From Chlamydiota bacterium (GTDB lineage Bacteria > Chlamydiota > Chlamydiia > Chlamydiales > JAAKFQ01): 64,000 nt of DNA. This document shows, in pieces, positions 7,045-50,301 of this stretch. The stretch spans positions 1,650 to 65,649 of the forward strand of contig JAAKFQ010000001.1 of assembly GCA_011064725.1 (NCBI GenBank), read 5' to 3'. The notes under the pieces were generated by a model. That model made no database searches, was not told the origin of the DNA, and worked only from the letters and a program-made list of their open reading frames with translations. The position numbers and the translations under genes were made by a program. Position 1 is the stretch's first letter; each line of letters begins with the position of its first letter.

Positions 7045-8355
7045 TTAAGAAGAAGGCTCAGCAGTTGCCTCGGGCGTTGTTATTGCCACTTTAGATTCTA
7101 GTCTGGTCAAAACCAAGAATGAAAGAATCGCAAAGCCTGCTGTGATGATGAAAAAGACGCTCCACTGCTGCTCAAAGAAGTAAAAAAACAGCCCACTAAG
7201 GGAAATGATAATGGCTTTAAATCCTGTATTTAATGCTGTTAGATAGGAAAACTGCAAAGAGGCATTATCTTTTGTCACAATAAGAGAATAAAACGTATAC
7301 AGAGCAACTAAACTAAAGCTACCTACAATATTACCTAATATTAACACGACAAAAAGAAAGGTTTTTGTCGGAGCAGATAAACTCATATATACAAGGACAC
7401 AAGAAAATAGTACTTGCAATAGAGCAACGGCAAAAAGACCCTTTTTATAATTAGATTTTGACTGAACCTCCCCTGCAACGAAACTTCCTAAAATATTTGC
7501 TAAAAAAGCAGGTAGAATTCCTAAGGCAATTTGTGTCATTGTAAAATTTAAACTTCTTAAAAAACTCCATATCAAAACATTCATAATGGCGTCAAACACC
7601 TTTGTTGAAAAAAAGAATATATAAAGCTTTACCCATGGCTGTCTTGAAAAATGATTCTCTTTTATGATTAAAAGATTATTTTTTAATCTTTCCCATAAAT
7701 TCATCCCTGATACTTTTGAAGATAATTGAATCGTAGAAAGTGTTTTTTTGAAAAAGAAGATGACTAGCATTGGAATAAGAAGAAATACAATACCGATCAA
7801 ATAGACCAGTTGCCAATTTGCAAGATAATCAGCCAAAAATAAAGCACCTGCAGCAGAAGTCAATAGGCCCACTCTGAAACCCAATGTATTCACAGAAGTT
7901 CCATAAGATAAAAGATTAGGGGGTAAAAGATGGATCCGGATTCCCCCACTGGCATTATCTACAACAGAAAAAGAAAGTGCCATGATTAATAAGCACAGTG
8001 CAAACAAATAAAACTGCGTGAGCGGATCCAACAAACTCATACAAAATAGAGAAATGGATATGCCCAACAAACCAAGTAACAAAAAGAAACGAAAATTACC
8101 AAAACTTTTAATCCACCTAGCCTGCGTATTTTCAATCATGGAGGACCAAAGCAATTTGGCCAATAAAGGAATATTGACTAAGGCCAAAAGAATACTCACC
8201 CTAGAAGTTGCCATTCCTATAGACTCTAGATAGTTACACAACGTACTAGACATCAGCACATAGGATAATCCCAAAGCAAATCCAAGTGGGAACATAAATA
8301 GAACCCTTGGATTCAAATACTCTCTAGAAAAAAATCTTTTTTTGGTTGCTTCCAT
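7045..8355 (-). CDS. MFS transporter (AmpG/muropeptide-permease-like)
   Basis: 436 aa with about 12 predicted TM segments and an MFS-like N-terminus. The AmpG-like subfamily assignment is tentative. Confidence 0.55.
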   Translation of the reverse strand: MEATKKRFFSREYLNPRVLFMFPLGFALGLSYVLMSSTLCNYLESIGMATSRVSILLALVNIPLLAKLLWSSMIENTQARWIKSFGNFRFFLLLGLLGISISLFCMSLLDPLTQFYLFALCLLIMALSFSVVDNASGGIRIHLLPPNLLSYGTSVNTLGFRVGLLTSAAGALFLADYLANWQLVYLIGIVFLLIPMLVIFFFKKTLSTIQLSSKVSGMNLWERLKNNLLIIKENHFSRQPWVKLYIFFFSTKVFDAIMNVLIWSFLRSLNFTMTQIALGILPAFLANILGSFVAGEVQSKSNYKKGLFAVALLQVLFSCVLVYMSLSAPTKTFLFVVLILGNIVGSFSLVALYTFYSLIVTKDNASLQFSYLTALNTGFKAIIISLSGLFFYFFEQQWSVFFIITAGFAILSFLVLTRLESKVAITTPEATAEPSS

Positions 8356-9185: not shown

Positions 9186-11395
9186 TATTGATCCAAGTTT
9201 GCCTTGCATTCAGTAAAGAACATACGCTCTTTATGTTCCCCTTTCTTGCCGATATTAAATGAAGATACAGGTCTAAAGTATCCCATGACCCGTGTCCACA
9301 CTTCACATTCTTGACGATCTTTATCTGGAATGAGGTATCCCATGACCCGTGTCCATCCTTCACATTCTTGACGATCTTTATCTGGAATGATTTGATCATG
9401 TTTTTTGTGAATTAATAATTCTTCATCGCATTTTGGACAAAACTGATGCTCCCCATGTAAATAGCCGTGCTTAGGGCAAATGGAAAATGTGGGTGTAATC
9501 GTAATATAAGGGAGTTTAAAGTTCTCCAAAGAACGACGCACAAATTTTTTACATGCATCAGAACTAGAAATTTTTTCTGTCATGTATAAGTGCAATACAG
9601 TGCCTCCTGTATATTTTGCTTGAAGTGCTTCTTGCTTTTCTAATGCTTCATAGGGATCATCTGAAAATCCAGCAGGGAGTTGTGAAGAATTTGTATAATA
9701 GGGATTCGTTGTGGTTCCTGCTTGAAGGATTTTAGGAAACCTTTTTTTGTCTTCTTTTGCAAAACGATAGGTGGTGCCTTCTGCAGGAGTAGCTTCAAGA
9801 TTGTATAAATTACCCGACTCTTCTTGAAAATGCACCATTTTTTCTCGAATGTGATCTAAAAATGAAAGCGCAAAATCTAACCCCCATTTTGTGGTGATAT
9901 TTTCTTTATCATCTGTAAAATTACGTATCATTTCATTAATACCGTTAACGCCAATTGTAGCAAAATGATTACGAAGCGTGCCCAAATAACGTTTTGTATA
10001 AGGATAGAGTCCATTGTCAATGAGCCGTTGGATGGTTTTTCTTTTCACTTCCAAGCTAGATTTTGCTGACTCCAAAAGATAATCCAAGCGTTGCATCAAA
10101 ACATCCTTATTTCCTTTAAAAAGATATCCTAGCCTTGCACAATTGATCGTTACGACACCCAAAGATCCTGTCTGTTCTGCAGATCCAAAAAGTCCATTCC
10201 CTCGTTTTAAAAGCTCTCTCAAATCTAGCTGCAAACGACAACACATAGAGCGTACCATACTAGGATCTAGATCAGAATTGATGAAATTTTGAAAATAGGG
10301 AAGGCCATATTTAGCGGTCATATTGAAAAGGAGATCTGCATTTTCACTTTCCCAAGGAAAATCTTTGGTAATGTTGTAGGTTGGAATAGGGAATGTGAAG
10401 ACGCGTCCCTTTTCATCTCCATTTGTCATCACCTCGATATAGGCTTTATTGATCATGTCCATCTCTTTTTGGAGATCCCCGTAGGTAAAGTCTACAGGTT
10501 TGCTTCCAATCATTGGCACTTGAGTGCGCAAATCTTCAGGACAGACCCAATCAAAAGTCAAGTTTGTAAATGGCGTCTGCGTCCCCCATCTAGATGGAAC
10601 ATTTAAATTAAAAATCAGCTCCTGCATGTTTTGTTTCACAACAGAGTAATCGAGATTATCGATGCGAATGTACGGTGCCATGTAAGTATCAAACGAGCTA
10701 AATGCTTGTGCCCCTGCCCACTCATTTTGTAATGTGCCTAAAAAATTCACAATTTGTCCCACAGCACTTGATAAATGTTTAGGTGGACCTGCCTCAATTT
10801 TTCCAGCCACTCCATTGAAACCTTCTGCAAGGAGCATTCTTAAAGACCATCCTGCACAATAACCTGCTAAAACATCCAAATCATGAATATGTAAACTTCC
10901 ATCTCTATGCGCTTCACCAATTTCATGAGAATAGACATGCGAGAGCCAATAATTTGCAATAATCTTGCCTGCCGCATTCAAAATCAATCCACCAAGAGAA
11001 TAGCCCTGATTTGCGTTGGCATTCACTCGCCAATCTTTGCGTTCTAAATATTCATTGACCGACTCTATAGAATCGATGACCACTTTTGTATCTTTTCTTA
11101 ACACCGTGTGTTTTTCTCGATACAAAATAAATGCTTTGGCTGTTTTGAAGTAACCTTCCTCAAAAAGCACCTGCTCAACTCTGTCTTGCACTTCCTCTTG
11201 AGTAGGAGTTTTTTCATAAAAATAGGCAATGACTTTATCTGTGAGCTTTTTTGCTACATCTTCGGAAAATGCTTGAGTAGCAATACCCGCTCTTAAAATT
11301 GCAGAAACGATTTTTTCTCTATCAAAAACAACTTCAGATCCATCTCTTTTCAAAAAGCTTTTCAATGACACTTCTTCTGCAATTTTATCGCTCAT
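9185..11395 (-). CDS. nrdD: Anaerobic ribonucleoside-triphosphate reductase (class III), with duplicated glycyl-radical motif
   Basis: N-terminal ATP-cone, a C-terminal Cys/His zinc-ribbon-like segment (CPKHG...CPKC), and the glycyl-radical signature TRVMGYFRPVSSFNIGKKGE. 736 aa. Confidence 0.9.
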   Translation of the reverse strand: MSDKIAEEVSLKSFLKRDGSEVVFDREKIVSAILRAGIATQAFSEDVAKKLTDKVIAYFYEKTPTQEEVQDRVEQVLFEEGYFKTAKAFILYREKHTVLRKDTKVVIDSIESVNEYLERKDWRVNANANQGYSLGGLILNAAGKIIANYWLSHVYSHEIGEAHRDGSLHIHDLDVLAGYCAGWSLRMLLAEGFNGVAGKIEAGPPKHLSSAVGQIVNFLGTLQNEWAGAQAFSSFDTYMAPYIRIDNLDYSVVKQNMQELIFNLNVPSRWGTQTPFTNLTFDWVCPEDLRTQVPMIGSKPVDFTYGDLQKEMDMINKAYIEVMTNGDEKGRVFTFPIPTYNITKDFPWESENADLLFNMTAKYGLPYFQNFINSDLDPSMVRSMCCRLQLDLRELLKRGNGLFGSAEQTGSLGVVTINCARLGYLFKGNKDVLMQRLDYLLESAKSSLEVKRKTIQRLIDNGLYPYTKRYLGTLRNHFATIGVNGINEMIRNFTDDKENITTKWGLDFALSFLDHIREKMVHFQEESGNLYNLEATPAEGTTYRFAKEDKKRFPKILQAGTTTNPYYTNSSQLPAGFSDDPYEALEKQEALQAKYTGGTVLHLYMTEKISSSDACKKFVRRSLENFKLPYITITPTFSICPKHGYLHGEHQFCPKCDEELLIHKKHDQIIPDKDRQECEGWTRVMGYLIPDKDRQECEVWTRVMGYFRPVSSFNIGKKGEHKERMFFTECKANLDQ
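9278..9391 (-). repeat. In-frame 57-bp tandem duplication (2 units) inside nrdD
   Basis: Units 9278-9334 and 9335-9391 differ at 4 nt. They encode LIPDKDRQECEVWTRVMGY and IIPDKDRQECEGWTRVMGY. Confidence 0.9.
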
Positions 11396-17486: not shown

Positions 17487-17497
17487 GTCTGTTATTA

Positions 17498-17600
17498 ACC
17501 TGAGTTTCTAAGTTTAGTTTATTCAGCATCGCGAGGAGATTTCTCTTAAATTCTTGGGATTTTTACCGCAAGGAATGGTCAAAAGGCCATTCCTAAGATA
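17498..17600. mobile_element. Family-B MITE-like element, left arm plus central hairpin only (half copy)
   Basis: Aligns with the left two-thirds of the full copy at 49669-49830 (…gagatttcKcttaaattcttg…, then a hairpin aggaatgg/ccattcct at about 17571-17594). Preceded by TA. Confidence 0.7.
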
Positions 17601-20488: not shown

Positions 20489-20646
20489 TTGATGTGATGC
20501 GAAAAATCCAATTTAGAGGAAGAGCGAAAGGGGCAAGATACAAGTATTGCTCGGAAGTTCAACTCCATGAGAGTTGGACAAGGAGCAATGCAAAGTAGGT
20601 TGCTCCTTGCAGCCTTCCTATAGGTAGGATTTTTGCGTTACATCGA
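20489..20646 (-). mobile_element. Family-A MITE copy A6 (158 bp)
   Basis: TIRs ttgatgtgatgcgaaaaatcc / ggatttttgcgttacatcga and central hairpin caactc..gagttg. Flanks ttgacaa/ttgatac (5/7). Overlaps the lgt stop codon. Confidence 0.85.
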
Positions 20647-21495
20647 TTGATACCTCAAGCGCTTAGAATAAATAACAAAGAAAACACCAAGCAATACAAT
20701 AGGAAGACTCAATATTGCGCCCATATTTAAAAAAGGCACATGCCAAAGGCTTTGCTCTAATTTGAAAAATTCAGCAATAGCTCTAAAGGTAAACATATTA
20801 ATTAAAAAGAGCCCACTGAAAAATCCCCTACCCTTATTTTTCAATTTTCGAAAAAGCGCTATAAGGACAAAAGCGCTGATTAAATAAAAAAATGCTTCGT
20901 AAAGCTGTACAGGATGACGTGGAACAAAAGGTGTTGCTCCTGCAGGGTTGCCAAACCTAACCGCCCAAGGCAAGGTTGTTTCTGTACCCATAATTTCTTG
21001 ATTCATAAAGTTTCCAGCACGTATAAAAAAGCTGGCAAACCCAATACTAACAGCGATGAGGTCAAAGAAAAACAAGCTGCTAAGGCCATACAATCGATCT
21101 TTGTAGATACGGCAAAAAAGCAAAATGCTTAAGACGATTCCAATCACAGCTCCATGTGAGGCAAGCCCTCCTTCCCAAGTCATAGGTATCTCCCAAAGGC
21201 GGTGCTTGAAATAGGCCCAATCATAAAAAAAGACGTGAAACAATCTAGCTCCAACAATAGCACCCACCATCACATACAAAAAGATCTTTTCATAAGAAAA
21301 CTTATGGAAAGCCAGTATTTCTTTTTTTTCTTTGTCTTTGAAGGCAGGAAAATCATTCAATAAAAACTGTTTGTACAGTTTTTGCAGAACAAACAAACTC
21401 AACATGCAACCAACAGCAAAAAAAATCCCATACCATGCAATGGGCCTATTAAAAAAAGGTATGTAAAATGCAATAGGATCTGGATTAAAGATCAT
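20638..21495 (-). CDS. lgt: Prolipoprotein diacylglyceryl transferase
   Basis: IAWYGIFFAVG N-terminal signature, HPVQLYEA motif, multi-TM. Confidence 0.85.
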   Translation of the reverse strand: MIFNPDPIAFYIPFFNRPIAWYGIFFAVGCMLSLFVLQKLYKQFLLNDFPAFKDKEKKEILAFHKFSYEKIFLYVMVGAIVGARLFHVFFYDWAYFKHRLWEIPMTWEGGLASHGAVIGIVLSILLFCRIYKDRLYGLSSLFFFDLIAVSIGFASFFIRAGNFMNQEIMGTETTLPWAVRFGNPAGATPFVPRHPVQLYEAFFYLISAFVLIALFRKLKNKGRGFFSGLFLINMFTFRAIAEFFKLEQSLWHVPFLNMGAILSLPIVLLGVFFVIYSKRLRYQSM

Positions 21496-23574: not shown

Positions 23575-23664
23575 CTGGCGTTATGCATTAAATTCTTTAG
23601 AGGAGGACGTAGTAGATTGTTCCTTGTAGCCCTCCTATGGATGGAATGTAATGCATAACGTCAG
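23575..23664 (-). mobile_element. Family-A MITE copy A7, internally deleted (90 bp)
   Basis: Both TIRs are present (ctggcgttatgcattaaattc / gaatgtaatgcataacgtcag) but the central ~68 bp is missing. Flanks taaacag/taaataa (5/7). Confidence 0.75.
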
Positions 23665-28679: not shown

Positions 28680-28745
28680 CTCATTCTCAGTGAGATAATT
28701 CTTTCTCCTCATGATACTGAATAAACTAAACTTAGAAACTCAGGT
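28680..28745. mobile_element. Family-B MITE-like element, right arm only (half copy)
   Basis: Ends …ctgaataaactaaacttagaaactcaggt followed by TA. This is the perfect reverse complement of the left terminus at 17498-17526. Its terminus contributes to the stop codon of the NSS transporter. Confidence 0.7.
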
Positions 28746-30109
28746 TAAAATATGTTGAAAGCATCAAGCAAGATAAAGATAATGAGTACAGGGGCGATGA
28801 ATTTCCAAATGGCTTTAAAATAGATCGCATACAATTTTTGTGAGATAGGAGATAGATGCATATGCATCTCAAGCTCTTTTAACACATTTTTTGGTCCCCA
28901 CACATAGCCTGCTAAAATACAAGCAACAAATCCACCCAAAGGCACCATAAAATTGAGTGTTACAAAGGAAAGGAGATCAAAAAAAGTTTGATTGAAAAGT
29001 GTCACATGTTTGAACAGTGAAAACGAAAGCGCTGAAGGAATACCAATAATAAAGGCACCTAAAGCACAAAACCAGGTGCTTGCTTTGCGTGTCCATTTTT
29101 TTTGTTCTTGTAAATAGCAAATCAAAGGCTCCATCGCGGAAATTTGTGAAGTCAAAGCTGCAATGGCAACAAGCACAAAAAACAAAATGGCAAAAAGATT
29201 GCCCCCAACGATGCGACTAAATGCTACAGGAAGCACAGAAAAAATAAGTCCTGGTCCAGAATGCGTCAGAGCTTCATTCACACCCGCAATGGAAAATATG
29301 GTTAAAATAGAGAGTATGGCAGCAAGCAAATCAAATCCAGCAATGTAGACGCAGCTACCCACCACATTTTCTTTTTTCTTTAAATAACCGCCATAAGTAA
29401 TCATGGTGCCCTGTCCAAGGCTAAGTGTAAAAAAGGCCTGCCCAAGGGCAAGCAGCAAAGCTCTTGGAGTTAACTTGGACCAGTCGGGAGTAAACAAAAA
29501 ATCGAGCTGTTTTGGATCATCCAAGTTTGCCAACCCCATGATGGTGAGAAAAACAAAGAGCAAAAAAAGCAACGGTATAAGGCTTTTGCTCACCCACTCG
29601 ATTCCCTTCTTCACCCCACCTAAAAGCACATAAGCGCAAAGCACAATAAAAATAAGATGGTAGCTGAGTGTCCAGGTCGGTGTCGCTAAAAAAGTCTGGA
29701 ACTGCGCTTCTGCAGATTGAAAGCTTGCTTGATGAGAAATATTGCCCAAAAACGATTCGACCAAATACCCTAAAATCCACCCCGCCACAACGCTGTAAAA
29801 CGAGCTAATTAAAAAGCCTGTTAAAATCTGGATTTTTCCAATCTGTTTCCATGTCTTTTTGTGAGTGATTTTATAAAGGGCCCCATCGACACTTGTTTGC
29901 CCATGGCGTCCTATGGAAATTTCCGTAATCAAAATAGGAATGCCTAGCAAAAACAGAAAGATGATGTAGGTGAAAATAAATACAGCGCCCCCATTTTGGG
30001 CAGCCAGATAGGGAAAACGCCAGATATTGGCAAGACCAATCGCAGAGCCCGCTGCTGCTGCAATAAACCCAAGCTTGGTCTTAAAATGTTCATGCCCGCT
30101 TTTTTTCAT
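28745..30109 (-). CDS. Sodium-dependent transporter, NSS/SNF family
   Basis: GFIAAAAGSAIGLANIWRFPYLAAQNGGAVF signature. Start taken at the internal ATG (MKKSGHEHF…), because the 35-codon upstream extension runs through a relic repeat. Confidence 0.85.
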   Translation of the reverse strand: MKKSGHEHFKTKLGFIAAAAGSAIGLANIWRFPYLAAQNGGAVFIFTYIIFLFLLGIPILITEISIGRHGQTSVDGALYKITHKKTWKQIGKIQILTGFLISSFYSVVAGWILGYLVESFLGNISHQASFQSAEAQFQTFLATPTWTLSYHLIFIVLCAYVLLGGVKKGIEWVSKSLIPLLFLLFVFLTIMGLANLDDPKQLDFLFTPDWSKLTPRALLLALGQAFFTLSLGQGTMITYGGYLKKKENVVGSCVYIAGFDLLAAILSILTIFSIAGVNEALTHSGPGLIFSVLPVAFSRIVGGNLFAILFFVLVAIAALTSQISAMEPLICYLQEQKKWTRKASTWFCALGAFIIGIPSALSFSLFKHVTLFNQTFFDLLSFVTLNFMVPLGGFVACILAGYVWGPKNVLKELEMHMHLSPISQKLYAIYFKAIWKFIAPVLIIFILLDAFNIF

Positions 30110-31173: not shown

Positions 31174-31806
31174 TTACCTACGTATGTAGCAATAGACATT
31201 TGCTCTTCCAAAGACAAAAGGCAGAGTAAGTTGCTTCCACAAACAGAATTGATTAGATGTCAGCTTTTCAGAAACCATCACTACTTTGGCTCCTTTTTTC
31301 AACTCCAAGAATTTTGTTTGTAATTGCTCAAGGTCTTGGAATCCTGTGGCAAAAAAATAGACAAAATCTGGCGTTGTAAAATCAAACGTCAAAAAATCTT
31401 GGTGTAAAAACGACATCTTGGGCATCAAATGTTGTGCTTTTTCAATTAAGGACTTATTGATATCTAGACCTGTCGATTGCGCATGGTAAAAAATCGAGGC
31501 AAATTGACATAGCCTTCCATCACCGCTGCCAAGATCGACAAAATGACTCTGTGGTTCTAGATAAAAGGTCTTCAATATCCGATCAAATGTCTTTAAGGGG
31601 GTAATCCCATACAAATATGTGTGACGATAGGGATTAACAAAAAGACGGCTCAAGGCGCGTTTGATATCGCTAAAAAACAGAAGCTTGGATTTAAGGTACA
31701 AGGGAATATTTTCAAAGCCATGCCAGAGCGTGACAAAAAAAACACGAAACGTCCAAAAAAGCTTACCAATTGATGGTTTGACCAATTTTAACCACACAAA
31801 ATTCAT
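31174..31806 (-). CDS. Class I SAM-dependent methyltransferase
   Basis: Motif I VDLGSGDGRL followed by GLDIN. Overlaps the 3' end of the upstream hydrolase gene by 44 nt. Confidence 0.6.
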   Translation of the reverse strand: MNFVWLKLVKPSIGKLFWTFRVFFVTLWHGFENIPLYLKSKLLFFSDIKRALSRLFVNPYRHTYLYGITPLKTFDRILKTFYLEPQSHFVDLGSGDGRLCQFASIFYHAQSTGLDINKSLIEKAQHLMPKMSFLHQDFLTFDFTTPDFVYFFATGFQDLEQLQTKFLELKKGAKVVMVSEKLTSNQFCLWKQLTLPFVFGRANVYCYIRR

Positions 31807-32686
31807 CTAATGTAATTTTCTTGTCCTTTAATGCTTGAACAAGCTCTTTGACGGGAGTAAGTTTTTTCTCAAACGTCAAACGAAAGGTATTCCAGTGACA
31901 AGCAATACTCATTTTAGATTTGATGATCTGATGAATTTTAACAGCTTGTATTGGACAGATATGCATATTTTTAAACAGCATCCTTGGATAGTAAGCTCCG
32001 ATAGGAATTAAACTCAGGGTGAAGCTTTTGAATTTTTCAGAAACGGCGCGAAAAATGGACTCTCTATATGCCGTATCTCCAACAAAATAGACGCTTTTTC
32101 CCTTGACATTGAGAACAAATCCCGCACATTTAGATTTGTTGTAGTCAAAAAGCAATCGATACGCCATGTGTTTGACAGGCACAGCTTCAATCCAATAATC
32201 CTTTTGATTAGAGCGTTCCCACCAGTCAAGTTCAATCACATTTTCAATCTTTCTTTTATCAAACCACTTCTTCAAACCTTTCGGAACAAACCAGGTAATA
32301 TTGGGGAATTTTTGATGCAATTTCTTGATGGTGTACTTATCTAAATGGTCATAATGGTTATGGGAGATCAACACGACATCGACTTTTTTTAAATCTTTTA
32401 ATCCCATCGGGATTTTTTCCTGTCTTTTGACTCCAAGAAAACGAAAAGGAAAATAAAAAGGTGTGCAACGTTTTGACCAGATAGGATCTGTCAAAAACAC
32501 CATCCCCTCTATTTCCATCATGAATGTCGAATGCCCAATCCATGTTAAATGAGGATGCGAAGTATTGACTTCTTGTTCAAAATAAGGAACTTGAAAAACG
32601 CCCATATCCACTGATTGCGTAATCATACCAAACCACTCATTTTTAAGTTTATGACAAAGTATACAAAAAATTGAATTTTTCACCAA
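31763..32686 (-). CDS. Metallo-beta-lactamase-fold hydrolase, NAPE-PLD-like (paralog 1, shorter N-terminus)
   Basis: ISHNHYDHLD (HxHxDH) and …WIGHSTF…DPIWSKRC…. The track start is TTG abutting MITE A1; a real start at ATG 32626 is plausible. Confidence 0.7.
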   Translation of the reverse strand: MVKNSIFCILCHKLKNEWFGMITQSVDMGVFQVPYFEQEVNTSHPHLTWIGHSTFMMEIEGMVFLTDPIWSKRCTPFYFPFRFLGVKRQEKIPMGLKDLKKVDVVLISHNHYDHLDKYTIKKLHQKFPNITWFVPKGLKKWFDKRKIENVIELDWWERSNQKDYWIEAVPVKHMAYRLLFDYNKSKCAGFVLNVKGKSVYFVGDTAYRESIFRAVSEKFKSFTLSLIPIGAYYPRMLFKNMHICPIQAVKIHQIIKSKMSIACHWNTFRLTFEKKLTPVKELVQALKDKKITLDEFCVVKIGQTINW

Positions 32687-32844
32687 CTGATGTTATGCAC
32701 CACCTTCTATTCATAGGAAAAGTGGAAGGAACAACCTCCTACGTCTTCCTCCTCATACAACTCTTTGGAGTTGTGCTTGTCAGAAATCCTTGTATCTTGT
32801 TCTTTCCATCTTTCCTCTAAACAGAATTTACTGCATAACATCAG
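32687..32844 (+). mobile_element. Family-A MITE copy A1 (158 bp)
   Basis: TIRs ctgatgttatgcac… / …ctgcataacatcag. Flanks tcaccaa/ttaccaa (6/7). Sits exactly between the two hydrolase paralogs. Confidence 0.85.
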
Positions 32845-33837
32845 TTACCAATTAATGGATTGTCCAGGGTAAAGAATGCGAAATTCTTCATTGTGAACAT
32901 CGCTTTTATCGAGGGCTTCTAAAAGATCAAAAGCAGGCCTTAATTGATCCTCATAAGAAAGTTTGAAGGTGTGCCAATGACAGGCAACAGAAAGCTTAGA
33001 TTTGACTTCTTTATGAATATCAAGCGCTTCTTTTGGCCCCACATGGACAGGAGATTGAAATTTTCTGGGTAGATAAGCACCTATGGGAATAAGACTCAAA
33101 TCGATTTTTTTAAATACATCCCCTAGCTTTTTAAAATCATGTTCATTGTATCCCGTATCTCCTGCAAAATAAAAACGCTTATTTTTCACCTCAACAACAA
33201 ATCCTGCCCAGAGTGTGCGATCCAAATCGAAAAGTTTTCTTCCAGAAAAATGTTGTGCCGGCACCCCAACAACGCGCATTTCAAAATTCTTTTCTTTTAC
33301 GGAGTACTCATCCCACCAATTCAACTCTACAACATTGTAAATGTCCTGTTTAATAAACCACACCTTCAATCCAAGTGGAACAAACCACAAAATTCCCGGA
33401 AATTTTTGATGCAAAAAACGCACCGTTTTACGATCCAAATGGTCATAGTGATTATGCGAAATGACCACGTAATCCACTCTTTCTAAATCATCTATGCTGA
33501 TGGGAGGTTGATGTTTTCTTTTTGGGCCAAAAAAACGAAATGGAGAACATCTCTTTGACCAAATGGGATCTGTCAAAATTTTGCGTCCTTCAACTTCAAT
33601 CAAAAATGTCGAATGATTGATCCATGTGACTTTTGGCTTGGAGGGCACAACTTCATGCTCACAAAAAGGAACTTGAAATCCATCAGGAACAGAGCGTCTT
33701 TTATCTGTGATTTCATCATAGGCTCCAAAAAACCATTTAACAAAGTGTCGGATTTTCCGATGGTGATTTTCTAAATAGGTGTTCACAAACCGCTTAGGCA
33801 TAGGTGTTTTGGGATAGTTTTTACTTTTATAACGCAC
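32845..33837 (-). CDS. Metallo-beta-lactamase-fold hydrolase, NAPE-PLD-like (paralog 2)
   Basis: ISHNHYDHLD. Collinear with paralog 1 over about 300 aa. Both end …INW. Confidence 0.75.
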   Translation of the reverse strand: MRYKSKNYPKTPMPKRFVNTYLENHHRKIRHFVKWFFGAYDEITDKRRSVPDGFQVPFCEHEVVPSKPKVTWINHSTFLIEVEGRKILTDPIWSKRCSPFRFFGPKRKHQPPISIDDLERVDYVVISHNHYDHLDRKTVRFLHQKFPGILWFVPLGLKVWFIKQDIYNVVELNWWDEYSVKEKNFEMRVVGVPAQHFSGRKLFDLDRTLWAGFVVEVKNKRFYFAGDTGYNEHDFKKLGDVFKKIDLSLIPIGAYLPRKFQSPVHVGPKEALDIHKEVKSKLSVACHWHTFKLSYEDQLRPAFDLLEALDKSDVHNEEFRILYPGQSINW

Positions 33838-38878: not shown

Positions 38879-39763
38879 ATGGCATCTTTTGTAAAACAAA
38901 TTGATCTTGGCTTAGAAAAAAAACTCAAAAATGATCTAAAAGAACAAGATTTTGAGTTTTCTTGCCCTCAATATACCTGTTTTCAAGCCAAAAAAAAGCA
39001 CCTTACTGTCACTTTGTACACAAGTGGAAAACTTGTTGTGCAGGGAAAAAACATGCAAGAGTTTATCGAATTTTACCTAGAGCCCCTCTTAAACGACTTT
39101 TCTTATTCTTATAAAGAACTTTACACAGATACTACACCACACATTGGATCAGATGAAGCGGGAAAAGGCGATTTTTTTGGTCCCCTTTGTGTCTGTGCCG
39201 CCTATGCTTCTGAACAAGATATCCGAAGATTACTAGATGATGGAATCAAAGATTCTAAAACAATTTCAGACAAAAAAATCTTAAAACTCACCGATAAAAT
39301 ACGTCAATATCTCACCTTTGAAGTGATCGCGATTTCTCCTGTCAAATACAATCTTTTATATGAAACGTTTCAAAATTTAAACGAACTTTTAGCTTGGGGC
39401 CATGCAAGAGCGATTCACAAAGTGTATGAAAAAACAGGATGCGATCAAGTCCTTGTCGATCAATTTGCGAAAAAACATGTTTTAGAAAAAAAAATCGCCC
39501 ATTTAAAAATTCCTATCACGCTTGTGCAACGCACAAAAGCTGAAGAAGACGTGGTTGTAGCAGCCGCTTCCGTTTTAGCAAGACATGCCTTTTTAAAAGG
39601 CATGGAGCAATTAGAAAAAATAGCCAAATGCCCCATTCCTAAAGGAGCGAGCAAAAAAGTGATTGAAACGGGATATTTATTAAGAGAAAAAGGATTTGAG
39701 CTCAAAAATTTTGCAAAAACCCATTTTAAGACCCACGACGAAATCCTCAAACGTTCTTCTTAA
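38879..39763 (+). CDS. rnhC: Ribonuclease HIII
   Basis: N-terminal RNase HIII-specific domain followed by GSDEAGKGDFFGPL (DEAGKG catalytic motif). Confidence 0.8.
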   Translation: MASFVKQIDLGLEKKLKNDLKEQDFEFSCPQYTCFQAKKKHLTVTLYTSGKLVVQGKNMQEFIEFYLEPLLNDFSYSYKELYTDTTPHIGSDEAGKGDFFGPLCVCAAYASEQDIRRLLDDGIKDSKTISDKKILKLTDKIRQYLTFEVIAISPVKYNLLYETFQNLNELLAWGHARAIHKVYEKTGCDQVLVDQFAKKHVLEKKIAHLKIPITLVQRTKAEEDVVVAAASVLARHAFLKGMEQLEKIAKCPIPKGASKKVIETGYLLREKGFELKNFAKTHFKTHDEILKRSS

Positions 39764-39920
39764 CTGATGTTACACAGTAAATTCTACTTAGAGAAAGAAC
39801 GAAAAGGGAGATATACAAGTACGTCCGACAAGCGCAATTCCAAAGAGTTGGGTGAGGAGGAATACGCAGCAGGTCGCCCTTTGCAGATTTCTATAAGTGG
39901 AAGTTAGTGTGTAATATCAG
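39764..39920 (-). mobile_element. Family-A MITE copy A2 (157 bp)
   Basis: Begins the base after the rnhC stop. Perfect 7-bp target-site duplication ttcttaa on both sides. Confidence 0.9.
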
Positions 39921-39963
39921 TTCTTAACTTAACAAAAAAGCTGCAATCGAGTATCATCGTCTT

Positions 39964-43508: not shown

Positions 43509-44375
43509 TCATTTCACTCTAGATAATCTTTCTATAGCTTGATGAGCTAAATCTATTCCTTGATTTGCAGCTAACATATAAAGCTCTAATGCTTTTTTCT
43601 CATCCTTTTCAACACCTATTCCATTTTCATAACACGCTCCTAGATAATGCTGTGCTAGAGAGAATCCTTGATTGGCCGCTAATGTAAAATATTCTACAGT
43701 TCTCTTTCTATCTTTATCTACACCCTGTCCATGTATATAACACATTCCTAGGCTATATTGGGCTACGATATCCTTCTTCTCTGCAGCTAATCTAAAAAGC
43801 TCTACAGCTTTCTTCTCATCTTTTTCAATTCCTGTTCCGTCTATATAACACATCCCCAACCCGGATTGAGCTTTGGGATATCCTTGATCTGCAGCTAACA
43901 TGTAAAATTCAACCCCTTTTTTTTCATCTTTATCTACGCCAGTTCCATGTATATAGCATACCCCCAAGAAGTATTGAGCTGGAGCGAGTCCTTGATCCAC
44001 AGCCAACGTATAAAGTTCAGCTGCTTTTTTTCTATCCCTACTTATACCTATACCATTCATGTAGCATATGCCCAAGTTGTATTGGGCTGAAGCTAATCCT
44101 TGATCCACAGCTAATGTATAAAATTTTACCGCTTTCTTTTCGTCCCTAGATACACCTACTCCCCTCTGATAACATGTTCCCAGATTGTGCTGAGCTAAAG
44201 CATATCCTTGATCTGCAGATAATGTATAAAACTCTACTGCTTTCTTTTCATCCTTGGATACACCTGTTCCTTTCATGTAACATAAACCTAGATCAAATTG
44301 AGCTCGAGCATTTCCTTGATCTACTGCTAACATGTAAAGTTCTGCTAACTTTTTCCTATTTTGATCCTCATCCAT
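43509..44375 (-). CDS. Sel1-like repeat protein (7 tandem 36-aa repeats)
   Basis: Repeats of the form A.AQ..LG.CY..G.GV..D.KKAVE.Y.LAA.QG, i.e. a 108-bp DNA periodicity. Confidence 0.85.
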   Translation of the reverse strand: MDEDQNRKKLAELYMLAVDQGNARAQFDLGLCYMKGTGVSKDEKKAVEFYTLSADQGYALAQHNLGTCYQRGVGVSRDEKKAVKFYTLAVDQGLASAQYNLGICYMNGIGISRDRKKAAELYTLAVDQGLAPAQYFLGVCYIHGTGVDKDEKKGVEFYMLAADQGYPKAQSGLGMCYIDGTGIEKDEKKAVELFRLAAEKKDIVAQYSLGMCYIHGQGVDKDRKRTVEYFTLAANQGFSLAQHYLGACYENGIGVEKDEKKALELYMLAANQGIDLAHQAIERLSRVK

Positions 44376-47789: not shown

Positions 47790-47948
47790 CTGATTTTACG
47801 CATTACCTTCTATTCATGGGAGGACTGCAAGGAACAATCTACGGCAAATTGCTCCTCGTTCAACTCTCACGGAGTTGACCTTCGGTGCAATACTTGTATC
47901 TTGCCCCTTTCGCTCCCCCTTTAAACAGAACTTACTGCGTAACATCAG
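47790..47948 (+). mobile_element. Family-A MITE copy A3 (159 bp)
   Basis: Starts the base after the hemW stop. Its right TIR contains the stop codon of the convergent pentapeptide gene. Flanks ttatttga/ttattaac. Confidence 0.85.
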
Positions 47949-49584: not shown

Positions 49585-49668
49585 GCATTATTTATCACTG
49601 TAACAAAAAAAAGTTTTAATCTGCAAACACTCGCTTATTATGAAGAAACTTAAGTGCGGATTTGAGTA

Positions 49669-49830
49669 ACCTTAAATATGGATTTAGTTTGCTCAAAATC
49701 ATGTAGAGATTTCGCTTAAATTCTTGTTTTTGCCGTAGGGATATAGTAGAAAACTATTTCCTACGGCAAAAAGTGCAAGAAGAAAGTGAAAGCTCTATGA
49801 GAATGAATAAAATAAAGCCATATTTAAGGT
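49669..49830. mobile_element. Family-B MITE-like element, full copy (162 bp)
   Basis: TIRs accttaaatatgg… / …ccatatttaaggt, flanked by TA on both sides. Central hairpin gccgtagg/cctacggc (49732-49767). Confidence 0.75.
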
Positions 49831-50058
49831 TAAACTTGCAAAAAAATATTTTACAATGTCACAGTTATGTCAGCTGTGAAAATTAAAATTTTTGCGACCT
49901 TTTAAAAATGAAGTTATTTGTTTTTTTTATTTTTCTTTTTCCTCTTCAATTCAAATTGATTAACTTGAAGGTATTTTATAAAACGTTTCCTAAACGTATT
50001 ACGTATGCTGGGAAGGATACGAATCAAATTGGAAAAGTATGGTTTTCCATTTATTTAA

Positions 50059-50217
50059 CTCATGTTACGCAGTAAATTCCATCTATAATAGGGCTGCAAA
50101 GAACACTCTACGGCATTTTGCTCCTCATTCAACTCTCATGGAGTTGAACTACGTCGCAATATTTGTATATTACCCTTTTCGCTCCTCTTCTAAATAGAAT
50201 TTACTGCGCAACATGAG
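50059..50217 (+). mobile_element. Family-A MITE copy A4 (159 bp)
   Basis: TIRs ctcatgttacgcagtaaattc / gaatttactgcgcaacatgag. Perfect 8-bp target-site duplication ttatttaa. Confidence 0.9.
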
Positions 50218-50301
50218 TTATTTAACTGACGGCAAAACAATTGTTGAATAACAATGCCAAAATTGTTATACTCCGCACACAATTAACAACCACATAGTTT
50301 C

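Follow-up and report, generated by a model that had tools for sequence, protein, structure and literature searches.

Analysis of a 64-kb stretch of DNA from a metagenome scaffold (ENA ERZ23486227; referred to here in its entirety as the window) revealed that the palindromic element at 50059-50217 is one copy of a dispersed repeat family, family A, which is a mobile MITE with target duplications of 7-8 bp. The family is a previously undescribed and abundant MITE of an uncultured chlamydial bacterium, of a kind that is itself already known, and the two arms of its copies covary as the partners of a stem that forms from one strand only. The explanation favored here, to which we give somewhat better than even confidence, is that family A is a non-autonomous DNA transposon that would be mobilized in trans by a DDE transposase and whose structure is kept in those lineages that propagate.

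The interval 50059-50217 gives the exact limits of an element of 159 bases, opening with CTCATG and closing with CATGAG (reading CTCATGTTACGCAG...CTGCGCAACATGAG), which lies between two copies of TTATTTAA. Its ends are spanned by a 54-nt inverted repeat, and the window contains six occurrences of the terminal 18-mer, where 0.05 would be expected. Seven copies of the family were located in the 64 kb by repeat finding and alignment, at about 20.5, 23.6, 32.7, 39.8, 47.8, 50.1, and 58.1 kb, a density of about one copy per 9 kb. The strand listed is the best-folding or "sense" strand, defined as the strand starting TAACTGATGTTACGCAGTAAATTCT.

50059-50217, - strand: the 50.1-kb copy, in the divergent spacer between the DeoC-aldolase and DUF3604 genes
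50051-50058: left target-site duplication of this copy, TTATTTAA, present as a single occurrence in the syntenic locus L086
50218-50225: right target-site duplication of this copy, TTATTTAA
50226-50238: 13 additional bases, CTGACGGCAAAAC, right after the duplication and missing from the L086 empty site
20489-20646, + strand: full copy abutting the lgt stop codon (lgt 20638-21495, - strand), its sense strand opposite to both neighbors
23575-23664, + strand: short copy of about 90 bp with an internal deletion, in the divergent mgtE/TPR-protein spacer
32687-32844, - strand: full copy with flanks TCACCAA/TTACCAA (6/7), the upstream gene having its stop codon within the right flank repeat
39764-39920, + strand: full copy following rnhC and flanked by an exact 7-bp duplication, TTCTTAA (39757-39763 and 39921-39927)
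47790-47948, - strand: full copy between the convergent hemW and pentapeptide-repeat genes, with flanks TTATTTGA/TTATTAAC
58072-58230, - strand: full copy in a divergent spacer, with flanks TAATTAA/TAATCAA (6/7)

The element is approximately 158 bp long (about 160 bp), runs from CTGATG to CATCAG with terminal inverted repeats at its ends (CTGATGTTACGC...GCGTAACATCAG), and is palindromic along its entire length. It is non-coding: a short reading frame that begins in the apical loop is not preserved from one subfamily to another and was rejected as a gene, several subfamilies lacking the start codon. Variants said in the initial annotation to recur in both arms of the same copy were found as matched pairs: gttatgca/tgcataac in the 32.7- and 23.6-kb copies, ttacaca/tgtgtaa in the 39.8-kb copy, aaatccagttta/taaactggattt in the 58.1-kb copy, gcaaaaatcc/ggatttttcgc in the 20.5-kb copy, and taaattccatcta/taaatagaattta in the 50.1-kb copy. 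Within 31763-33837, a family-A copy exactly separates two tandem metal-dependent hydrolase paralogues.

The window also holds other repeats. A second family, TTAACCTGAGTTTCTAAGTTTAGTTTATTCAG..., is present at 17495-17556, 28704-28748, and 49667-49832; in the last of these copies, a perfect hairpin (GCCGTAGGGATA...TCCTACGGC) is enclosed by an inverted repeat of 36 nt, and this copy gives weak, chance-level Rfam matches to mir-252 and RNA-OUT. A 56-nt unit occurs twice at 9278-9390, with 57-nt spacing and 96% identity. About seven to eight diverged 108-bp tandem repeats (63-71% identity) at 43521-44359 lie within a - strand open reading frame of 288 amino acids (43509-44375), which appears to encode a repeat protein built of 36-residue units.

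Apart from an identical copy, the best relative of the HemW encoded in the window shares only 53% identity, and the named HemW relatives are Rhabdochlamydiaceae or Chlamydiota MAGs. A scan of one genome per species with a pattern of the element core returned 45 loci, among which the only true relative was L003, from a Chlamydiae MAG placed near Simkaniaceae by a later search, the other 44 being chance matches. The same kind of scan of metagenomes gave 38 loci. Assembly SDBV01 accounts for 36 of these, which do not overlap the window and probably derive from the same organism. The remaining two, L059 and L072, are unrelated chance matches to the core pattern; common to both is a well conserved, non-family sequence of approximately 150 nt, AATACAAATCTTCTCACAATCAATTCGCGAGAGTTGTTTAAGGAAACC..., at about 7150-7300 and 780-930, respectively. 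A profile search of 410 kb then gave 81 non-redundant copies, of which 66 are full length, including two in L003. No copies were found in a scan of viral contigs, and Rfam 15 produced no match at gathering score in the window and none at E<=10 on the elements. A hammerhead ribozyme, considered for the CUGAUG start, was rejected as its core does not fit and Rfam is silent; an IHF site, compared by eye, did not fit either, and a sigma-70-like promoter within the element (TTGAAC-16-TATCTT, antisense strand) is present in only 39 of 66 copies and is thus no defining feature.

The flanks of the copies carry a copy-specific direct repeat in a 7-bp register around CTGATG...CATCAG, with the consensus T-T-N-N-N-A-A. 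At least six of the seven flank positions match in 21 of 66 copies, where 3.4 would be expected and none of 2000 shuffles exceeded 13, and exact flank repeats of at least 6 nt are found in 15 of 66 copies (2.3 expected); the duplication columns themselves covary (columns 1 and 182). Duplications of 7-8 bp at AT-rich targets are recognizable in only about a third of the copies. A TA duplication of the IS630/mariner type, as in Correia, RUP, and Nezha elements, is ruled out by the 7-8 bp TTNNNAA register, the position-wise flank comparison, and the empty sites.

Mobility, at which the initial annotation had only hinted, is further borne out by empty sites in relatives. L086 is syntenic with the window from 37 to 60 kb and contains no copies in 21 kb, its orthologous spacers being compact. 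At the 50-kb site, where the window reads CCATTTATTTAA + element + TTATTTAA + 13 nt + AATTGTTGAA, L086 reads CCATTTATTTAA|ATTGTTGAA. At the 47-kb site of L086 the hemW and pentapeptide-repeat genes overlap, with TTATTTAA present once and no element, and at the 39-kb site the spacer after rnhC is 21 nt, also without an element. In L003, a copy with divergent arms reads TTGTCAA + element + TTGTTAA, and L089, 86% identical to L003 at the nucleotide level, is empty and contains TTGTTAA once. No copy was found in five sampled relatives (L086-L091, about 120 kb). The start of the 13 additional bases at 50226-50238 resembles an element terminus, and they may be what is left of an earlier copy inserted here. 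The spacer entered by the element (49950-50058 and 50239-50300) is unusually well conserved with L086 12960-13095, for instance in GTATGGTTTTCCATTTATTTAA and AATTGTTGAAnAACAAT, with the proteins of the two genomes only about 50% identical, so that the element may have inserted into a conserved regulatory region or a small RNA.

Solo and truncated ends occur among the copies. Listed for L076 842-870 and L048 378-408 are a mini-remnant of approximately 30 nt, TAACTGATGTTACGCAGTAACTTCAGTTA, which consists of the two termini alone, like an excision footprint or a deletion derivative, and, separately, a 31-nt tandem duplication that takes in flank and 5' end and adjoins a full copy. Three family-A copies (L049 1705-1859, L054 8215-8374, and L063 3378-3484) are interrupted by other short inverted-repeat elements with ends CCAATTGTAAAATTAA... 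(L049) and ...CTGCATAAT... (L054 and L063), so that the genome holds several MITE families inserting into one another. Two candidate histories were discarded: the first copy of L057 is a truncated 5' part followed by a full copy, with the 3' half missing, and is not a clean nested insertion, and the seemingly orthologous copies upstream of the SNF transporter in L003 and L085 differ in their arms and are independent insertions.

The consensus fold of a 46-copy alignment comprises five helices with 47 pairs in all, which together form a single long rod. In this alignment, standard pairs occupy 94.8% of cells, as compared with 86.0% when partners are shuffled, and none of 500 shuffles reached 94.8%; both-sided changes were observed in 37 of the 47 pairs (229 cells, against 70 in shuffles), bearing out the initial annotation's proposal that the arms covary and that a stem is maintained. 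Sliding the partners by 1-3 columns lowers pairing to 36.5-42.9%. The copy at 50 kb also folds far better than shuffled controls, a comparison that the initial annotation had asked for (z = -8.4 for the + strand and -11.8 for the - strand).

The subfamilies with matched arms that the initial annotation had envisaged exist, with distinct arm and core types, and the variants it listed were all of this matched-arm kind. These observations would be expected if no single-strand structure were involved, with clonal subfamilies whose terminal repeats co-evolved with transposases, or with one arm converted on the template of the other in a hairpin. Across 66 copies, the mean corrected mutual information (MI-APC) of structure pairs is 0.24, whereas column pairs outside the structure average 0.00 and columns within 3 nt of each other 0.05; of 24 polymorphic pairs, 13 lie above the 99th percentile of non-pairs, and high values reach paired columns up to 150 nt apart. 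As the signal is high at pairs and low at neighboring columns, the coupling is pair-specific and not a by-product of clonal subfamilies. An account without single-strand structure is thus very improbable, and it is further opposed by the strand polarity of the fold. Covariation in a repeat that multiplies is on its own no evidence for a host RNA gene.

G.U combinations are found in 342 cells and A.C combinations in 62, a 5.5-fold difference, with G.U making up 11% of pair cells. Many pairs run through A-U, G-U, and G-C with the A.C intermediate absent, and at pairs conserved to at least 90% the rare variants are G.U in 19 cases and A.C in seven. A count of singleton pair states (A.C 21, G.U 10) was set aside, being biased against G.U since G.U states are shared. 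The sense RNA is more stable than the antisense RNA in all 66 copies, with means of -73.2 and -53.3 kcal/mol, and the reverse-complement alignment gives no consensus hairpin (-1.6 kcal/mol, against -51.0 for sense). This polarity is also seen in both L003 copies, from a second genome, and in the divergent-arm subfamily. A cruciform, for which both strands would need to fold, is disfavored by pairing on one strand, as is plain recognition of matched terminal repeats in double-stranded DNA, which would treat G.U and A.C alike. Of the structural options in the initial annotation, the stem therefore stands, for one strand only, and the cruciform falls; hairpin-templated conversion, its further suggestion, is unlikely, since it would erase the shared G.U pairs that are so abundant.

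In one reading of the folded molecule, a single-stranded DNA hairpin of fixed strand is transposed or recognized, by a REPIN/RAYT, IS200/IS605, or other hairpin-binding enzyme, and covariation keeps this DNA hairpin. DNA parameters do preserve the polarity (-33.7 against -26.4, in 64 of 66 copies), sequence drift affects the arms and spares the core and the extreme termini, orientation is independent of transcription, and compensatory changes are known from the REPIN ssDNA hairpin (PMC3116915). The copy-specific 7-8 bp duplications with their matching empty sites are, in contrast, not made by known HUH/Y1 transposition; copies are oriented 28:28 with respect to GC skew, unlike IS200/IS605; and the ends are CTGATG, with no GTAG/CGTC tag. 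On these points family A resembles neither REPIN/RAYT nor IS200/IS605 elements, and the reading is unlikely. The folded strand is, on our analysis, somewhat more likely to be an RNA of the element than an ssDNA intermediate, a lean that draws on duplication-making integration, the lack of a replication-linked orientation bias, the 11% of G.U, and the precedents of transcribed MITEs. To our knowledge, no ssDNA stage occurs in duplication-making integration. The strand-polar covariation signal is notably clean. G.U is tolerated and A.C avoided, yet there is no sign of function at individual loci, an unusually clean case; should the polarity reflect a transposition intermediate, it would be informative about the mobilization of very short palindromic elements.

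The position of copies with respect to genes was analyzed for a role in cis. The lgt, rnhC, and hemW genes were confirmed to adjoin copies, and the rnhC stop codon (TAA) falls within the left duplication of the 39.8-kb copy. The median distance between an element end and the 3' end of the neighboring gene is 0, the values clustering at -2, -6, and -19, as compared with a median of 61 for 5' ends, and 29 of 66 full copies lie within -31 to +10 nt of a gene 3' end, in agreement with the earlier remark that copies directly follow stop codons. The terminus TAACTGATGTTACGCAGTAA closes all three frames within 20 nt (TAA, TGA, ...CAGTAA), and the distance clusters coincide with its stop codons. The association is thus accounted for by the TTNNNAA target preference together with three-frame stops in the element ends and carries no sign of a terminator; the family shapes gene ends in that the element supplies their stop codons.

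The 3'-end positions would also suit a cis-acting RNA element, a 3' stabilizer, terminator, or RNase III site, kept at each locus by purifying selection in the host, as would the very stable RNA fold, the G.U lean of rare variants at conserved pairs (19 against seven), and the processing of known MITEs by RNase III or RNase E (PMC10969869). Several results run counter to this. Among copies in tandem gene contexts, 13 have their sense strand pointing the same way as the genes and 19 the other way, which is random, and 25 copies occupy divergent spacers, that is promoter regions, with 19 in convergent ones. A U-tract (at least five T in the next 8 nt) follows only 19 of 66 copies in sense and eight of 66 in antisense, so that with U-tracts mostly absent and orientation random the copies do not have the makeup of intrinsic terminators. 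Private substitutions are as frequent in paired (0.71%) as in unpaired columns (0.72%), and the empty orthologous sites in syntenic relatives indicate that the neighboring genes work without the element. A terminator or stability role, as the initial annotation had proposed, accordingly finds no support, and retention by the host locus by locus is quite unlikely.

Most variation among copies is shared and mosaic. Parsimony on a neighbor-joining tree, comparing internal with terminal changes, was abandoned as unreliable, the tree being star-like and the variation mosaic. Since variation is mostly shared, private changes fall on stems and loops alike, and orientation follows neither transcription nor replication, we infer that the structural constraint acts mainly on copy-producing lineages and not through cis regulation at each locus. 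The recently inserted L003 copy, whose arms are strongly diverged from the main family and which nevertheless forms a near-perfect hairpin of -77 kcal/mol, fits such a filter at the level of lineages.

The apical core (GATACAAG, CAACTC/GAGTTG, GAGGAG, GTAGATTG, and TTGCAGC) is more conserved than the arms. This conservation is partly imposed by the search pattern in the 46-copy set, and it holds in the 66-copy set, in which about 20 full-length copies fall outside the pattern. In a typical MITE, the arms are more conserved than the core. Both this pattern and the strongly diverged arms of the recent L003 copy suggest an element that is recognized by its structure and core and not by long terminal repeats.

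No autonomous partner was found in the 410 kb, whether as a transposase, a longer element with the same ends, a multi-copy open reading frame, or a Tn5-like match; nor did pairs of solo ends enclose a gene in the 410 kb, and outside the window the loci contained no multi-copy DNA of at least 400 bp. The 410 kb likewise yielded no candidate gene for a DDE transposase with a YREK motif. The ISPepr1 subgroup of the IS4 family has 5'-CT ends, direct repeats of 7-8 bp, and AT-rich targets (PMC2266710), and the ends, duplication length, and targets of family A agree with these; CTGATGTTACGCA matches six of the eight conserved ISPepr1 end positions, YT-AA-YTT---A (PMC2266710). Judged by these features, an ISPepr1-type IS4 transposase would be the best candidate mobilizer, as a lead and not a demonstrated relationship.

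In the favored explanation, a DDE transposase, most plausibly of this IS4/ISPepr1 subgroup, would move the element in trans and insert it at AT-rich TTNNNAA sites, very often in the stop-codon region of a gene, with 7-8 bp duplicated. The three-frame stop codons in the termini would make insertions at extreme 3' gene ends tolerable, selection would act on the lineages that keep yielding new copies, and the selected fold would more likely be RNA, as in the transcribed MITEs bcr1, ERIC, and Correia. DDE cut-and-paste uses double-stranded DNA and offers no obvious reason for folding on one strand, which counts against this explanation, as do the lack of a transposase or longer element with these ends in the 410 kb, a core more conserved than the arms, and duplications recognizable in only about a third of the copies. 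Alternatively, a folded single strand of fixed polarity might be what is recognized, through its apical core and CYGAYG termini on an arbitrary stem, with an RNA or ssDNA stage followed by integration at a 7-8 bp staggered cut; such an undescribed mode of bacterial transposition is a long shot.

Among known systems, family A is likened by its features to bcr1 of the Bacillus cereus group, which is transcribed and in which compensatory changes keep an RNA-type fold (PMC3184786). Both are non-coding, dispersed elements of approximately 155-160 bp at non-conserved positions with short AT-rich direct-repeat flanks (PMC3184786), whereas the host phyla are unrelated and bcr1 has 5-bp flanks and two hairpins in place of 7-8 bp and one long rod. 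The Correia/NEMIS elements of Neisseria and the ERIC/YPAL elements of enterobacteria are likewise palindromic intergenic MITEs, of 100-170 bp, which form long RNA hairpins, often lie beside gene ends, and occur in genomes without the transposase (PMC10969869, PMC3733652), but they duplicate TA. REPINs, moved by RAYTs, share a hairpin that takes in the whole element, common compensatory changes, and selection that apparently acts on the replicating unit (PMC3116915); they differ in their length of about 100 nt, their conserved REP ends, and a movement thought to proceed as ssDNA without target duplication, whereas family A duplicates its target and is most conserved in the apical core. The likeness to ISPepr1 lies in the 5'-CT ends, direct repeats, and targets described above (PMC2266710), and the difference in that family-A arms can diverge strongly between subfamilies. 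The Rickettsia palindromic elements are also selfish palindromic repeats of approximately 150 bp, whose host lineage is obligately intracellular and for which no transposase is known (PMC10969869); they often lie in frame inside genes and encode peptide, whereas family-A copies are intergenic or clip the last codons only. A 2024 review of prokaryotic MITEs makes no mention of chlamydiae (PMC10969869), and family A adds a well characterized MITE family to the Chlamydiota.
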